Virus record (IMG/VR): IMGVR_UViG_3300042945_001831
Coordinates: 1 to 64,000 of that record
Strand: one strand, 5' to 3'
DNA: 64,000 bases
DNA from: a virus
In this document: positions 4,252-60,668 of the stretch, piece after piece
Layout: each line of letters begins with the position of its first letter
Position numbering within the stretch: the first letter of the stretch is position 1
Position numbers and translations under genes: made by a program
Notes under the pieces: generated by a model
Seen by the model: only the letters and a program-made list of their open reading frames with translations
Database searches by the model: none
What the model was told of the DNA's origin: nothing

Positions 4252-4698
4252 ATGATTTCCCTTCCAAACTTGAAAGAAACTGTAGATTACTCTAATCTCA
4301 CCAGTGAGAACTATAAGCAAGTTCTCGATGAAATGGTAGTAGATCAGATTCAAGATTTCATTGATGAAAACTTCTACATTGATGATATTCTTGAGTTCAT
4401 TCAAGAACACGGTGTTGAGTCTTTCTCTGCTCATTATGATGAGTATGTCGATGCAGGTGAAACTTACTCTTACAATGCAGTAGATACTTTCATTGAAGAG
4501 TTTGGTGTTGATGCACTTAGTGGATTTATGGATGCTTATCGTGGACAATGGGAATCGAAAGCAGATTATGCAGAAAACTATGTGACTGATTGTTATTCTG
4601 TTGATTTCCCTGCTTTTATTGAGATTGACTGGGAAAATACCTTTGACAATCTTGATTGTGTTTATGTCAATGGTTTTGTTTTCGATAATAACTTCTGA
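4252..4698 (+). CDS. ArdA-like antirestriction (DNA mimic) protein
   Basis: very acidic; C-terminal DAYRGQWESKADYAENYVTDCY...PAFIEIDWENTFDNL...NGFVF resembles the ArdA C-terminal domain pattern. Confidence 0.6.
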   Translation: MISLPNLKETVDYSNLTSENYKQVLDEMVVDQIQDFIDENFYIDDILEFIQEHGVESFSAHYDEYVDAGETYSYNAVDTFIEEFGVDALSGFMDAYRGQWESKADYAENYVTDCYSVDFPAFIEIDWENTFDNLDCVYVNGFVFDNNF

Positions 4699-8074: not shown

Positions 8075-8311
8075 AGATCAGATGGAAGAGATTAACACTC
8101 AAGCATAAGAGATAATTATCATTTGATATGTAAGAATGTTTTAATTGATAATTAAATTAAATGTATTAAAAAACATAGTTGAGTGTTTTGTTGTGTTATA
8201 ATGATAGTGTTATATAAAGGTTCTTATAACCTGTCTAGACACTTATAAATGCCTCTAGTTCTTGTTCTTATGCTTCTCTAAACCCCTCTAGTTCTTGTTG
8301 TCTAAGCCCGC

Positions 8312-8340
8312 ATTATACCATAAACCCCATAAAAAGTCAA
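8312..8340 (-). promoter_or_regulatory. strong leftward sigma70-type promoter
   Basis: minus strand TTGACT-17-TATAAT with extended TG. Confidence 0.75.
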
Positions 8341-8346
8341 GGGCAC

Positions 8347-8405
8347 ACAGACACTCCTAGGACTGGCACAACACATATTGACAGAATCTCGACAATTCTT
8401 ATAAG
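8347..8405 (+). promoter_or_regulatory. degenerate early palindromic element with possible rightward promoter
   Basis: ACAGACAC-N8-CTGGCACA (8347-8370); TTGACA 8378-8383; TATAAG 8400-8405, 29 bp after the element. Confidence 0.45.
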
Positions 8406-8412
8406 TCTCGTG

Positions 8413-8624
8413 CCTGTGGAAAAATAGTTTTCCACAGGTTTCATTCATTTCCTATAGGGGAAAGTAATGATTTTCACAGAATAGTTTTCCACAGGTTTAT
8501 AATAATTTGTAGTGTTTGCAAGGGTTTATAAGAATTGCCCTGTGGAAAACTATTCAAAACCTGTGGAAAACTTGTGGAAAACTATTCGTTATATTCCACA
8601 GAGTTCGTTATATCCTGTGGAAAA
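8413..8624. repeat. cluster of cyanobacterial-type DnaA boxes (TTTTCCACA)
   Basis: perfect copies at 8415(-), 8428(+), 8485(+), 8541(-), 8562(-), 8573(-), 8616(-); one-mismatch TATTCCACA at 8592; TTATCCACA at 8870-8878. Confidence 0.8.
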
Positions 8625-9018
8625 CAGTTCGTTATTCATAGAACTTCGTCATAAGACTTCGTTATACATAACAGTTCGTCATAACACTTCGTTGTACTCA
8701 TAGTATAAACATATAATTGTCTTATAGTATAATAATATAACAGTATCGTTATTAGACACCTCCCATACAGTTTGCTATTCGGTTCGTCCTGTGCTATACT
8801 ATTCGTTGTATATAGTTCTGTGTACTCACTTGTAGTCTCACTGTCTTATACTTTAGAAGCACTTCGTCTTTATCCACACCCCCCATACAGTTTATTATTT
8901 GAATCTGACAGTGTTGTATAAGCACTTATATCGTGCTCTTCGTTATAAGGACACCCCCCATATAGTTTATTATTTTTATAACACAGTAATGAATATAAAG
9001 TATTCGTCATTGTTCGTT
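8585..9018 (+). repeat. 13 co-oriented TTCGTY repeats (iteron-like)
   Basis: TTCGT starts at 8585, 8604, 8628, 8645, 8658, 8675, 8688, 8783, 8802, 8863, 8939, 9003, 9013. Confidence 0.75.
8755..8975 (+). repeat. three direct repeats ACACCYCCCATAYAGTTT(ATTATTT)
   Basis: copies at 8755-8773, 8875-8900, 8950-8975. Confidence 0.75.
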
Positions 9019-9246
9019 TATTATAATAAAACAGCACTGTTTTGACAGTTATATTTTGTGTTGTTGTATTCTTATACCTAACCGATGCCCCCCCCCCTAA
9101 AGCTAAAAAAGCAAACTACCCTAACCTACAAACCTTTGAAAACGTTCGAGAGATTGAGAATAAAATAAAAAAATTTCCGGAAAAATTTTTATTCAAAAAG
9201 GTTAAAATGCTATATAAAAACAAAAGAGTAAAAATGCGTAAGGGTT

Positions 9247-9399
9247 ATGAAATTTGAATTTGACGATTATGAGAAAGATGTATTATTGGAGACGATTCAA
9301 TATCGTTTAGATGTTGATAAGATGTTAGTAATCAATGATAGTTTAAGAAAAGATGTTGAAGATTTATTTCGAAAGATAGAAGAAGATGAATACTTATAA
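9247..9399 (+). CDS. small hypothetical protein (50 aa)
   Basis: AAGGG RBS, MKFEFDDYEKDVLLETIQYRLDVDKMLVINDSLRKDVEDLFRKIEEDEYL. Confidence 0.6.
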   Translation: MKFEFDDYEKDVLLETIQYRLDVDKMLVINDSLRKDVEDLFRKIEEDEYL

Positions 9400-53864: not shown

Positions 53865-54332
53865 ATGAAAGAAAAGAAAAAAAATCCCAATTATGTTAAT
53901 AATAAAGATTTTCATGATGCATTGATTACTCATAAGAGAAAAATGGATGAGTCAAAAGCTAATGGACTTCCACCGCCAAGAATTTCCAATTATCTTGGAG
54001 ATTGCTTTTTGAAAATTGCTACTCATTTATCATATCGTCCTAATTTTGTAAATTATATGTTTCGTGATGATATGATTTCTGATGGTGTGGAAAATTGTGT
54101 TCAATATATTAATAATTTTGATGTTAATCGTTCAAATCCGTTTGCTTACTTTACTCAAATTGTTTGGTATGCTTTTTTGAGGCGTATTTCTAGAGAAAAG
54201 AGACAAATGGAAATTAAAGATAAAATTATTGAACGCAGTGGATTTGAAGAGGTATTTACTGCTGATGAAGGATACAATAGATCAAATTACAATACAATTA
54301 AAGACAATATTCAAATTAAATTAAATCAATGA
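53865..54332 (+). CDS. gp55: late sigma factor gp55
   Basis: YVNNKDF, RPNFVNY, DMISDGVENC, NPFAYFTQI; TG-C-TATAAT extended -10 just upstream. Confidence 0.96.
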   Translation: MKEKKKNPNYVNNKDFHDALITHKRKMDESKANGLPPPRISNYLGDCFLKIATHLSYRPNFVNYMFRDDMISDGVENCVQYINNFDVNRSNPFAYFTQIVWYAFLRRISREKRQMEIKDKIIERSGFEEVFTADEGYNRSNYNTIKDNIQIKLNQ

Positions 54333-59597: not shown

Positions 59598-59803
59598 ATC
59601 TATATAAAATCTCATATAAGAATCTAAAAGAAGAATCTATTAAAACAACTCCAGAAAATGTAAAGGAGGCAAATGAAGCACTTTTTTATTCTAAAATGAA
59701 TCTTCCACAGGCAGCAAAGCACTGTGGTATGACGCAGAAAGAAATGAAACTTACTTTTTTTGAATACCTTAAATATAATAAACCTGATTATGAAATCTCT
59801 TAA
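59594..59803 (+). CDS. small hypothetical protein, HTH-like
   Basis: ATGA overlap; MNLPQAAKHCGMTQKEMKLTF. Confidence 0.7.
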   Translation: MNLYKISYKNLKEESIKTTPENVKEANEALFYSKMNLPQAAKHCGMTQKEMKLTFFEYLKYNKPDYEIS

Positions 59804-60668
59804 GACCCCTTGCCGCTACCCCGGTGGTAAGAGTAGAGCGGTCACTAAAATGGACCAATACTTCCCAGATCTTCGCAACTATGATGAATTTCGTGAACCA
59901 TTTCTTGGTGGAGGATCAGTTGCAATTCACATTACAAAGAAATATCCATACCTTAAGATTTGGGTGAACGATCTGTATTCTCCACTTGTAAACTTCTGGC
60001 AGCAACTCCAGATGTTTGGGGATGATTTGAAGAATGAACTTAGTGGACTGAAGTTAGCATATTGTACACCAGAATTAGCAAGAGAATTATTTACAAAGTC
60101 AAAGGTACAAATCAATGATGAGTCTGAAACGAACCTTAATCGTGCTGTCGCTTTCTATATTGTTAACAAATGTTCTTTTAGTGGTCTTACCGAAAGTTCT
60201 TCTTTTTCTCCACAAGCATCAAATAGCAATTTTTCATTGATGGGTATTGAGAAACTCCCAGAGTATTCAAAGTTAATTGCTAATTGGCGTATAACTAATT
60301 ACTCCTATGATTATCTAATGGATGGAAACAAGAGTGCTTTTATGTATCTCGACCCTCCTTATGATATTAAGGATAATCTCTATGGGAATAAAGGATCAAT
60401 GCACAAAGGATTTGATCACGATAAGTTTGCTGCTGATTGCAATTCCAACAATATGGATATGTTGGTAAGTTATAATACTGATCAACTTGTCAAAGATCGT
60501 TTCTTAGGTGGAAAATGGAATGCTGCTGAGTTTGATTTGACTTATACAATGCGTTCTGTTGGTGAATATATGAGAGAGCAAAAACAACGTAAAGAACTGC
60601 TACTTTTTAATTATGGAATTGAAGGACTGGTTAAACTCGATCAATCAGACGAAGAACAACCTAATTGA
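59790..60668 (+). CDS. dam: DNA adenine methyltransferase (Dam/D12 class)
   Basis: RYPGGKS, EPFLGGGS, catalytic LDPPY. Confidence 0.9.
   Translation: MKSLKTPCRYPGGKSRAVTKMDQYFPDLRNYDEFREPFLGGGSVAIHITKKYPYLKIWVNDLYSPLVNFWQQLQMFGDDLKNELSGLKLAYCTPELARELFTKSKVQINDESETNLNRAVAFYIVNKCSFSGLTESSSFSPQASNSNFSLMGIEKLPEYSKLIANWRITNYSYDYLMDGNKSAFMYLDPPYDIKDNLYGNKGSMHKGFDHDKFAADCNSNNMDMLVSYNTDQLVKDRFLGGKWNAAEFDLTYTMRSVGEYMREQKQRKELLLFNYGIEGLVKLDQSDEEQPN

Follow-up and report, generated by a model that had tools for sequence, protein, structure and literature searches.

A DnaA-box cluster in the control region of a T4-like cyanophage

T4 is the textbook phage that ignores the host initiator, and to our knowledge the replication start site and mode of T4-like cyanophages are unmapped. 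The locus studied here raises the question of why a phage of this kind would carry a dense cluster of the 9-mer TTTTCCACA. A preliminary description of this DNA had named the word as the DnaA box of cyanobacterial oriC, and the binding assays in Cyanothece and Anabaena cited in excerpts of PMC4674748, where it is called 'species-specific', bear this out. The window, that is, the whole stretch of 64,000 nucleotides analysed, has a GC content of 31.8% and belongs to a viral contig of 81,457 bp.

The phage was assigned to the T4-like cyanomyoviruses, as had been proposed from the letters. Protein families of gp25, gp6, gp15, gp17, gp18, gp20, UvsW, gp45, gp44, RegA and gp43 were found, and the major capsid protein showed 78–80% identity to gp23 of S-SSM7 and P-SSM2, with the capsid matches to Synechococcus phage and Prochlorococcus phage equally close. 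The array lies between the early genes and the baseplate module of this lytic phage, in a 1.17-kb gap (8075–9246) without credible ORFs. Two ORFs across the array (63 aa and 41 aa) were rejected as coding, as 10-, 11- and 21-nt indels in relatives break both. By family matches, the adjoining ORFs encode an ArdA-like protein and members of DUF2786/DUF7168, of families of unknown function, of a family labelled glycosyltransferase and of a family labelled ferredoxin.

An exact search revealed nine copies of TTTTCCACA in the window, compared with a mean of 2.12 and a largest count of 6 in 100 dinucleotide-preserving shuffles. The full contig contained the same nine copies, and the reversed-pattern control gave 0. 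Seven copies fell within 210 bp (8415–8624), where about 0.007 were expected (Poisson tail near 1e-19), and the other two were isolated, at 54086 and 58673. The preliminary description had read the locus accurately in these respects: the seven perfect boxes in about 210 bp, the variants TATTCCACA at 8592 and TTATCCACA at 8870, the inverted pair at 8413–8438 (a perfect palindrome, CCTGTGGAAAA-ATAG-TTTTCCACAGG), the spacings of 126, 21, 11 and 43 bp between the minus-strand boxes and the presence of only isolated copies elsewhere were all recovered. Altogether the array comprised seven perfect boxes, two one-mismatch boxes and one decayed box, ordered as a divergent pair at the head followed by three rightward boxes facing three leftward boxes (Table 1). 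Its composition was like that of the phage (GC 0.328 vs 0.318). The cluster corresponds both to the host-consensus DnaA boxes that mark an oriC (7 perfect and 2 one-mismatch) and to the non-origin, high-affinity boxes that mark datA.

Two predicted promoters stand to the left of the boxes, and both were conserved in the window-type subgroup of the alignment described below. The leftward one has no ORF downstream. The rightward one was read by eye from the sequence, as the promoter scan demands T at the last −10 position and so missed TATAAG. The early-promoter palindrome of the phage, TGTGCCAC-N8-GTGGCACA, occurred in nine copies at a fixed distance before −10 boxes. A further promoter-like sequence, TTGCTA-17-(TG)TATACT at 8772–8800, was located in the family D1 repeat, and the one-mismatch box TTATCCACA was located just ahead of the second copy of this repeat. 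Eight of the ten plus-strand matches to TTCGTYAT in the window fell in 8585–9003, and these repeats occurred together with the boxes in the window-type lineage only. Near the right edge of the region lies CCCTAACCTACAA; S-SSM7, P-SSM2 and uncultured relatives, whether they carry boxes or lack them, have it in the corresponding position, and P-SSM7 has a copy too.

Table 1. Coordinates of sequence features in and around the DnaA-box array (window positions).
Feature	Position	Strand	Details
AT-rich tract, candidate unwinding element	8112–8171	.	Least stable 60-mer of the window, percentile 100 of 64 kb (nearest-neighbour stability)
Two 21-nt direct repeats TAAAYSCCTCTAGTTCTTGTT	8246–8299	+	Family D8, 90% identity, 33-bp spacing
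Leftward sigma-70-type promoter, TTGACT-17-(TG)TATAAT (predicted)	8312–8340	−	11/12 consensus positions match
Degenerate copy of the phage early-promoter palindrome, TGTGCCAC-N8-GTGGCACA class	8347–8370	+	
Rightward early-class promoter, TTGACA-16-TATAAG (predicted)	8378–8405	+	Expected start ~8411–8414, at first box
Divergent (back-to-back) DnaA-box pair, perfect 11-4-11 palindrome	8413–8438	.	Perfect boxes at 8415 (−) and 8428 (+); inverted-repeat and box searches
Imperfect palindrome TTTCCTATAGGGGAAAG	8448–8464	.	Nearly invariant, 22-sequence alignment
Decayed DnaA box TTTTCACA, one C lost	8471–8478	+	Most relatives have TTTTCCACA at the same column
Perfect DnaA box	8485–8493	+	100% identity to window in 21 relatives (box inside selecting 17-mer)
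47-bp spacer between convergent box sets	8494–8540	.	Nearly invariant; contains direct repeat D9
Three perfect DnaA boxes (8541, 8562, 8573)	8541–8581	−	21- and 11-bp phase
Co-oriented TTCGTYAT repeats ('iterons')	8585–9010	+	Dense 8585–8700, sparser to 9010
One-mismatch box TATTCCACA	8592–8600	+	
Perfect DnaA box	8616–8624	−	
Second AT-rich tract, right of array	8695–8754	.	Percentile 99.8 (stability profile)
C-rich promoter-like 45-nt repeat, three copies (8756, 8876, 8951)	8756–8995	+	Family D1
AACTACCCTAACCTACAAA, right edge of variable control region	9114–9132	+	Conserved well beyond array-bearing lineage

Conservation of the array and of its back-to-back pair

Alignable arrays were found at the same place, between the same phage genes, in many uncultured relatives on independent contigs from different samples, which contradicts a chimeric join with a host origin and identifies the array as genuine phage DNA. 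Three or more boxes were present in 8 of the 51 protein-selected relatives with at least 1.5 kb of upstream DNA, a sample biased to close kin because the 51 come from the best 80 of at least 600 matches. P-SSM2 and S-SSM7 had no boxes at the corresponding place, two near-complete relatives retained just the pair, and the number of boxes per pair-bearing locus ranged from 2 to 12. A lack of conservation, which would have counted against the preliminary description, thus does not apply to the lineage; the array is nonetheless optional and so cannot serve as the sole essential origin for the whole family.

When all 9-mers were ranked by clustering in 633 kb of sequence from relatives selected through a neighbouring protein, TTTTCCACA came first, with 8 clustering loci compared with 7, 6, 6 and 4 for shifted words. 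We then compared columns in an alignment of 22 sequences picked by an exact 17-mer covering boxes 8485 and 8541 (L016 and L043 were left out for their different arrangement, and L034 was merged with the identical L028). The box columns exceeded the remainder of the array region in conservation by a moderate margin (0.887 vs 0.763; Mann-Whitney p = 0.002), the 100% conservation of boxes 8485 and 8541 being circular because the selecting 17-mer covers both. The 47-bp spacer and the second palindrome were as invariant as the boxes, so other factors must also act there. Single boxes changed orientation between close relatives yet remained perfect, which fits a site read by a monomer rather than an RNA or a dimer operator.

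Small clusters also occurred in cultured phages (P-SSM7, four of six boxes within 660 bp, at 45.9–46.7 kb; S-CREM1, five of six within 650 bp, at 87.7–88.5 kb), and the flanks of the 9-mer in cultured phages and other lineages were unrelated to those in the window. A blastn search of 8075–9250 against the cultured-phage collection gave no match at E 1e-5, and 8405–8720 at E 1 gave short box-level matches only. At blastn sensitivity, therefore, no cultured phage of this collection, from which very near records may be absent, carries the cassette.

The pair TGTGGAAAA-N3-5-TTTTCCACA was detected in 111 viral contigs and in none of 401 sampled cyanobacterial genomes. A gene survey that took in 107 of the 111 loci, many of them truncated, found gp25, gp6 or the neighbouring gene in 75 loci and no gene constantly adjoining the pair (73-aa upstream ORF, 20/107; DUF2786 protein, 9/107). 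Across 150 flanks, −10-like hexamers were enriched about twofold within 15 nt before the pair (61 vs 25–34 per 15-nt bin). Among 63 distinct pairs oriented by structural genes, the loop read ATAG in 22, CTAT in 16, AAAG in 8 and CTTT in 10, with almost no intermediates, indicating inversion of the whole loop through an intrastrand fold or a template switch. As RNA, 8414–8640 folded far better than shuffles (z = −9.7). A structured RNA was rejected: the only Rfam matches were two to MIR396, both below threshold and due to the inverted boxes, and the consensus fold of 12 relatives had a covariation term of 0.1, with 2 of 42 pairs altered on both sides. Because of this low covariation and the orientation flips, the fold was read as a by-product of inverted sites.

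Comparison with known origins

The preliminary description had called the array host-oriC-like. The boxes agree with this: the same 9-mer lies beside dnaN in cyanobacterial oriC (excerpts of PMC4674748), and the number of phage boxes is similar or higher. The dnaN-side origin of a 2.2-Mb cyanobacterial genome shares the extended flanks CCTGTGGAAAA / TTTTCCACAGG and the 10–11-bp tandem spacing, and 24 nt at 8560–8583 are identical to the tandem boxes of that origin. Among 120 bacterial box clusters the most frequent spacings were 21, 12, 11 and 22 bp, with which the same-orientation spacings of the phage (21, 11 and 43 bp) agree. The remaining features differ, however. The phage array has no homology to the dnaN-side origin outside the boxes, its layout is convergent (+++ then ---) whereas that of the 2.2-Mb genome is divergent, and it is headed by the back-to-back pair. 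No DnaA-trio was found on either strand of 8075–9250 (no run of at least three TA(G/A), no (TAG)x2), whereas a TAGTAGTAGTAG run, absent beside the phage boxes, abuts the boxes in a 1.7-Mb host-type genome ('host-type' being a label from size, composition and membership of a class sample around a MAG titled Cyanobacteria). The lack of outside homology and of a DnaA-trio, together with a pair found in viruses and in 0/401 cyanobacterial genomes, rules out a captured host origin and indicates that the array was built by the phage.

According to excerpts of PMC4412123, T4 oriF (uvsY) and oriG (gene 34) consist of a promoter and a downstream, easily unwound element, with no ORF required. In this phage the array stands between the two stretches of the window with the lowest computed stability (percentiles 100 and 99.8). 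The leftward promoter (8340–8312) faces the least stable tract, which lies about 135–190 nt downstream of its expected start, and the rightward promoter is directed at the array, followed by the repeats and the second AT-rich tract, so that a predicted promoter and a candidate unwinding element without an ORF are present by consensus and stability computation. The T4 promoters are MotA-dependent middle promoters without host-initiator sites, whereas both predicted phage promoters carry sigma-70 −35 and −10 boxes and a DnaA array is interposed; no MotA-dependent middle promoter was recognised in either. We know of no MotA in cyanomyoviruses. A general link of arrays to the least stable DNA was not supported: in a set of 40 distinct arrays (each of 4 or more boxes, in a locus of 6 kb or longer and with 1 kb or more on either side), the locus-wide minimum of 60-mer stability fell within 400 bp of the array in 4, compared with 3.5 expected by length, and the median local stability percentile was 98.8.

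In lambda, DnaA boxes lie downstream of pO and DnaA stimulates the activation of ori-lambda, which proceeds by transcription and not by DnaA-driven melting (excerpts of PMC3985674). The phage locus resembles lambda pR/pO, with its boxes next to the replication start, in that host-DnaA boxes directly follow a predicted promoter (last base of TATAAG at 8405, first base of the pair at 8413). The boxes of lambda are weak and only two in number, and lambda encodes an initiator, O, whereas the cyanophage has 7–10 consensus boxes, a T4-type replisome and no recognisable initiator gene near the array.

Host DnaA boxes are also found in iteron replicons such as P1 oriR, F, RK2 and pSC101. The phage likewise combines direct repeats (the short co-oriented TTCGTYAT), DnaA boxes and AT-rich DNA. 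Its repeats are 8 nt long with irregular spacings of 13–23 bp, whereas iterons are ~20 bp and in helical phase, and it is the genome of a lytic phage. Family matches recognised no Rep-type initiator gene among the neighbouring ORFs, the small ones of which are unassigned.

The probable reader and the possible roles of the array

To identify the protein that reads the boxes, we searched for PF08299, the DnaA-type DNA-binding domain, this family alone being covered. The phage's own contig (43% complete) gave no match, nor did 5 viral records that carry the pair or the array, 2 of which are at least 90% complete, and a phage-encoded DnaA was rejected on this ground. The domain was encoded in all 5 candidate host-type genomes. 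We know of no protein besides DnaA that reads the 9-mer. From these two points, no other known reader and no DnaA-type DNA-binding domain in the phages searched, we infer that the virus very probably docks the host initiator DnaA at the array.

The reading that we favour, and to which we give about an even chance, is that 8413–8624 is a phage-built docking array for host DnaA in an early control region, coupling early transcription and/or the start of replication to the host initiator. Host DnaA would bind the boxes, and bound DnaA would gate or stimulate early transcription through and away from the array. The early programme and the replication start of the phage would then be tied to the amount or state of host DnaA, and titration of DnaA by the replicated array would be a side effect. 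The preliminary description had offered a DnaA-opened origin or a datA-like sink, and each of these roles is possible; as the array begins at a predicted early promoter, a third role is added here, control of transcription by DnaA in the manner of lambda pR/pO. T4-type phages come with a helicase, a loader and a primase of their own, so that it is not obvious why they would need DnaA.

A tentative, rather improbable extension is that replication itself starts in a transcription-activated, host-DnaA-dependent manner: the promoter would fire into the pair, the displaced strand would form a hairpin with a DnaA box as its stem, and DnaA on this stem and on the phased boxes downstream would open the AT-rich DNA alongside or load a helicase. 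If so, phage DNA synthesis would begin only in hosts with abundant, active initiator, and the hairpin would have left its trace in the inversions of the 4-nt loop seen among close relatives.

We consider it unlikely that the array acts mainly as a DnaA sponge, a datA-like sink that soaks up host DnaA as it replicates and blocks host initiation or DnaA-dependent transcription. Seven perfect boxes in 210 bp ranked at the top of 120 sampled bacterial clusters (7 reached by 4/120), and the optional, dose-like spread of 2 to 12 boxes would suit an accessory takeover device. Two AT-rich genomes of 1.6–1.7 Mb in the cyanobacterial sample held only 17 and 19 perfect boxes per chromosome, equal to the reversed-word control, and the boxes in the dnaN-side gap of both were all one-mismatch ones. 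Against so few and such imperfect host sites, a few dozen copies of the phage would be in excess and would win the competition for DnaA, although these counts come from host-type genomes, which may not represent the host of this phage. However, a single incoming genome would titrate little at the time when host shut-off would matter, and a sink could work from any position, whereas the array has retained its place, its start at a predicted promoter and a specific pair, spacer and order. Cyanomyoviruses also degrade host DNA.

It is doubtful that the longer repeat AACCTGTGGAAAACTATTC is recognised by a protein other than DnaA, whether from the phage or a regulator of the host, with the likeness to DnaA boxes arising by coincidence or mimicry. 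Part of the flanking sequence is conserved (G at −1, A at −2 and G at both +10 and +11), and the 47-bp spacer, TTTCCTATAGGGGAAAG and the TTCGTYAT repeats, invariant in the same region, clearly need other binders. When only TCCACA was fixed, however, positions 1–3 carried 1.65–1.74 bits and position 10 (G) 1.1 bits; the information peak sits exactly on the 9-mer. The same flanks are present at host-origin boxes and in the E. coli R1-type oligo CCCTGTGGATAACAAGG (excerpts of PMC4674748), whereas in other lineages the sequence around the boxes is unrelated. Copies were found in tandem, in inverted arrangement and singly, which suits a monomeric reader, and the 107 pair-bearing loci, many of them truncated, share no constantly adjacent gene that might encode another one.

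Equally doubtful is a hairpin 'A-site', in which the displaced or single strand would fold the 11-4-11 palindrome and DnaA bound to the stem would load a helicase. The ABC primosome is a precedent for helicase loading at a DnaA-box hairpin (excerpts of PMC6127211), and the phage palindrome could similarly present a duplex DnaA box on single-stranded DNA. The predicted hairpin, with a DnaA box in its perfect 11-bp stem and a 4-nt loop, is a structural possibility at the predicted transcript start; the pair is phage-specific, and both loop orientations occur at similar frequency. On the other hand, template-switch inversion is possible in any perfect palindrome and needs no hairpin function, covariation was nearly absent, and two DnaA filaments growing outward could just as well nucleate on duplex DNA at a back-to-back pair. 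The A site, moreover, is a one-box element of a plasmid or M13-derived single strand, and the helicase that it loads is host DnaB, whereas the phage hairpin is hypothetical and T4-type phages have a helicase of their own to load.

Very unlikely is a DARS-like function, in which the array would recharge DnaA of the host from ADP to ATP and keep the host replication or transcription programme active to the benefit of the phage. Like datA and DARS1/DARS2 of E. coli, which inactivate or recharge DnaA, the array is a dense box cluster that is not part of a chromosomal origin and has oppositely oriented neighbours, the latter being a hallmark of DARS cores (excerpts of PMC6868365). The DARS1 core, however, is convergent with a 5-bp spacer (TTATCCACT-ATTCC-TGTGGATAA), and box III, co-oriented with box II, follows 3 bp on (NC_000913.3; excerpts of PMC6868365). 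The close pair of the phage is divergent with a 4-bp spacer, so that bound proteins would face away from each other, and its only convergent boxes are 47 bp apart; the DARS layout was rejected accordingly.

An artefact, whether a chimeric assembly with a host origin or a chance low-complexity repeat, is hardly credible: the 24-nt exact identity to a host origin and the ending of some related contigs near the array would fit it, but the arrays align between the same phage genes in independent contigs from different samples, 75 of the 107 pair-bearing loci contain gp25, gp6 or the neighbouring gene, similarity to the host origin stops at the boxes and the GC content is phage-like.

T4-like cyanophages are among the most abundant viruses of the ocean, and replication in their hosts follows a strict daily timetable; a link to DnaA, the natural read-out of host cell-cycle or diel state, would thus be relevant to how infection depends on light and the diel cycle. 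Conserved consensus host DnaA boxes at a predicted early promoter offer a cheap experimental handle on the location of the cyanophage origin. They also make two further questions testable, namely whether phage replication is gated by the cell-cycle or diel state of the host and whether the phage manipulates host initiation through DnaA titration. A literature search at the level of abstracts found no published description of a DnaA-box array in T4-like cyanophages, in agreement with the preliminary description.

A gut microvirus likewise has this extended box, in twelve perfect copies arranged in tandem at 11 bp. Given this occurrence, phage-borne DnaA-box arrays may be a wider, unrecognised device.

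DnaA-box array in a gene-free control region

The source virus is a T4-like cyanomyovirus whose 81,457-bp IMG/VR contig (43% complete by CheckV) contributes its first 64 kb as the window. Pfam searches matched gp25, gp6, neck protein, gp15, terminase, sheath, portal and scaffold, as well as UvsW, a gp46/47-type nuclease, gp45, gp44, RegA and gp43, and UvsX, a gp41-type helicase and NrdA lie on the contig remainder beyond the window. The major capsid protein shares 78-80% identity with gp23 of S-SSM7 and P-SSM2. Between the end of a 73-aa ORF (8074) and small ORFs starting at ~9247 lies a 1.17-kb gap without a credible gene. The preliminary description had reported here seven perfect copies of TTTTCCACA, with TATTCCACA at 8592 and TTATCCACA at 8870, and every detail was confirmed: seven exact boxes fall within 8415-8624, the other two are near-boxes, and the window holds 9 copies compared with 2.12 expected from shuffles. 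The contig-wide count, which that description had suggested, is likewise 9. Alignment with relatives identified 8471-8478 as a decayed box, one base short.

Features of the control region (window coordinates)
Feature	Position	Remark
AT-rich tract	8112-8171	least stable 60-mer of whole window
Two direct repeats, 21 nt each	between tract 8112-8171 and leftward promoter	
Leftward promoter, near-consensus, TTGACT-17-TGnTATAAT	8340-8312	predicted, consensus match
Degenerate early-promoter palindrome copy, TGTGCCAC-N8-GTGGCACA class	8347-8370	
Rightward promoter, TTGACA-16-TATAAG	8378-8405	predicted, consensus match
Back-to-back box pair, perfect palindrome CCTGTGGAAAA-ATAG-TTTTCCACAGG	8413-8438	at rightward promoter's expected start
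Second palindrome	8448-8464	conserved; after the pair
Two more rightward boxes	8471, 8485	8471 decayed
47-bp spacer	between boxes 8485 and 8541	almost invariant
Three leftward boxes	8541, 8562, 8573	21- and 11-bp phase
Rightward box	8592	one mismatch
Final leftward box	8616	array's right end
Co-oriented TTCGTYAT repeats	8585-9003	8 of the window's 10 plus-strand matches; interleaved with array's right part and beyond
Second AT-rich tract	8695-8754	stability percentile 99.8
Three C-rich, promoter-like repeats	right of second AT-rich tract	
AACTACCCTAACCTACAAA element	9114-9132	kept far outside array-bearing lineage

The 24-bp palindrome of the TGTGCCAC-N8-GTGGCACA class occurs in nine copies (151, 764, 2288, 2772, 4169, 5191, 5759, 6914 and 8347), at a fixed distance (~28 nt) ahead of the -10 boxes of early-gene cassettes, and is a candidate activator or operator site of early promoters. 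Several cyanomyovirus lineages conserve the AACTACCCTAACCTACAAA element, with a preceding C-run or hairpin, at ~450-550 bp upstream of phrog_1574; carriers, with DnaA boxes present or absent, include P-SSM2 (L129), S-SSM7 (L128), P-SSM7 (L049) and the fetched stretches L057 and L059. The P-SSM7 copy stands at another place, adjoining the box cluster of that phage, and the element had no Rfam match. Elsewhere, the early genes include an ArdA-like anti-restriction protein (4252-4698; PHROG E 9e-23, under the Pfam cut-off), a Dam-type N6-adenine methyltransferase (59760-60668) lies between gp44 and RegA, and the C-terminal end of the NrdA-type ribonucleotide reductase ORF (contig 79678-81375; 15678-17375 of fetched stretch L130) matches an intein-splicing domain.

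Recurrence and conservation among phages

Conservation in related phages, raised in the preliminary description, was borne out in part. Among 39 viral contigs recruited by an exact 17-mer from the array, ~24 carried 4-8 boxes within 350 bp and aligned with the window across the whole region. We also assembled a motif-blind sample (633 kb) from the best 80 of at least 600 viral loci coding the downstream 249-aa protein, in which only 8 of the 51 loci having at least 1.5 kb upstream showed at least 3 boxes within 350 bp; P-SSM2 and S-SSM7 had no array at the equivalent place. Six of these eight arrays were roughly as far from the gene as in the window (~960-1,500 bp), and those of L063 and L068 lay ~2.0 and ~3.7 kb upstream. 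The array is thus optional among relatives. In a 171-kb relative a single cluster held 8 of its 11 boxes, and two near-complete relatives retained the palindromic pair alone. Other clustered words occupied the equivalent gap of box-less relatives (e.g. L057 5030-5200); GTATAAAGAAT-type words formed clusters in at most 5 of the 80 loci chosen by protein, as did TCTCGACGAG-type words, which suggests that the control region carries lineage-specific alternative repeat sets.

When all canonical 9-mers in the 633 kb were ranked by clustering, TTTTCCACA came first and words shifted by 1-3 bases ranked lower. When sites were collected by TCCACA alone, the three preceding T's carried 1.65-1.74 bits and the following G 1.1 bits. 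Smaller clusters with unrelated flanks occurred in other lineages and in the cultured phages P-SSM7 and S-CREM1, and individual boxes flipped orientation among close relatives yet remained perfect. In the closely related set, conservation was higher in box columns than in the rest (0.887 vs 0.763, P = 0.002), with two boxes inside the selecting 17-mer and therefore not independent. Because this difference is moderate and the 47-bp spacer and second palindrome were as invariant as the boxes, it is the recurrence of the 9-mer across contexts, rather than the alignment, that argues most strongly for selection on it.

The back-to-back pair was found in 111 viral contigs and in 0 of 401 cyanobacterial-class genomes. 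Of the 107 loci examined, 75 had gp25, gp6 or the neighbouring gene and 80 had at least 3 boxes within 400 bp. Its 4-nt loop (8424-8427) occurred in both orientations, even between near-identical relatives. Among 63 distinct pairs oriented by structural genes, ATAG (22) and CTAT (16), like AAAG (8) and CTTT (10), were about equally frequent with one intermediate, which excludes stepwise mutation as the source and points to whole-loop inversion via an intrastrand fold or template switch.

Comparison with bacterial origins and candidate functions

TTTTCCACA is the DnaA box of cyanobacteria, accounting for 7 of 11 repeats in S. elongatus and backed by binding assays in Anabaena and Cyanothece (PMC4674748). 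It is not confined to them: direct pairs also occurred in genomes whose titles name Acidobacteriota, Clostridia, Saccharibacteria, Bacteroidota, Verrucomicrobiota or other groups. For the host side we sampled the class to which a MAG titled Cyanobacteria belongs, taking 401 genomes. A 2.2-Mb member carried 6 perfect and 5 one-mismatch boxes ~450 bp upstream of dnaN, with flanks as in the phage (CCTGTGGAAAA, TTTTCCACAGG), a run of five spaced 10-11 bp and a 24-nt identity to window 8560-8583; outside the boxes, no similarity to this origin was found. A 1.7-Mb AT-rich member had only one-mismatch boxes upstream of dnaN, adjoining a TAGTAGTAGTAG run. Genome-wide, perfect boxes (19 in the 1.7-Mb and 17 in a 1.6-Mb member) did not exceed the reversed-word control. 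Each of these two host-type genomes (L259 1550-1620, L260 1510-1590) has a single close pair of perfect boxes, convergent and 44 bp apart. With a one-mismatch third box, the pair lies in an intergenic region that is conserved between the two and does not adjoin dnaN; it is possibly a non-origin DnaA site of the host.

In 120 bacterial loci having two close boxes, boxes of the same orientation were most often spaced 21, 12, 11 or 22 bp. Seven perfect boxes within 350 bp were reached by only 4 of these loci, which puts the phage array among the densest in bacteria. These spacings and counts show that the phage boxes follow the grammar of real DnaA arrays. The layout is the phage's own, headed by the back-to-back pair that the 401 genomes lack and with a convergent core where the host origin is divergent, and no DnaA-trio run was present at the array. 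The host-oriC-like array proposed in the preliminary description therefore stands as to its host-type boxes and their grammar, but not as to layout. In sum, these host-type DnaA boxes form an array built by the phage and restricted to its lineage, placed at a predicted early promoter within a control region that has no credible gene. An artefactual array is excluded for practical purposes. No published description of DnaA boxes in cyanophages was found in a search of main texts that covered few subscription journals.

We give about an even chance to the reading that host DnaA docks at the array and would thereby tie early transcription to the host initiator, and by way of that transcription also the start of replication nearby. 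In lambda, footprinting has located DnaA boxes downstream of pO, and transcriptional activation of ori-lambda is stimulated by DnaA (PMC3985674); the phage pair similarly lies at a promoter's predicted start, and -10-like hexamers were ~2-fold enriched in the 15 nt before the pair in 150 distinct flanks, a modest signal. T4 oriF and oriG combine a promoter with a downstream unwinding element (PMC4412123), an arrangement that the leftward promoter and the tract at 8112-8171 match on paper, although the phage promoters are sigma-70-like. The locus-wide least stable 60-mer was near the array in 4 of 40 distinct arrays compared with 3.5 expected, so this link belongs to the sub-lineage and not to arrays generally. 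The region resembles an iteron replicon in its repeats, boxes and AT-rich DNA, but no Rep gene was found among the neighbouring ORFs.

That the array serves as a DnaA sponge is unlikely. A hairpin-type helicase-loading site at the pair is improbable; in the A site of the ABC primosome the hairpin stem holds a DnaA box (PMC6127211), and the phage palindrome could likewise show a duplex box on single-stranded DNA. As RNA, the array folded strongly, with no covariation and no Rfam family. Binding by another protein is unlikely to a similar degree; the boxes are found alone as well as in tandem, convergent or divergent arrangements, a variety that fits recognition of an asymmetric site by a monomer, and a DnaA-type DNA-binding domain was present in 5 of 5 candidate host-type genomes and coded in none of the phages searched. 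A DARS-like role is very improbable, since the phage pair is divergent with a 4-bp spacer whereas in E. coli DARS1 (bioD-uvrB gap) the paired boxes converge across 5 bp (DARS core layout, PMC6868365).

A 5.2-kb gut microvirus (Microvirus mar31, MZ089777.1; L358) carried 12 perfect TTTTCCACA boxes (1917-2074) in the non-coding gap between its capsid and pilot genes, 11 of them forming an exact 11-bp tandem of CCTGTGGAAAA, the extended unit common to the window array. Further microvirus records gave box-level matches, and phage-borne DnaA-box arrays may extend into the ssDNA phages.
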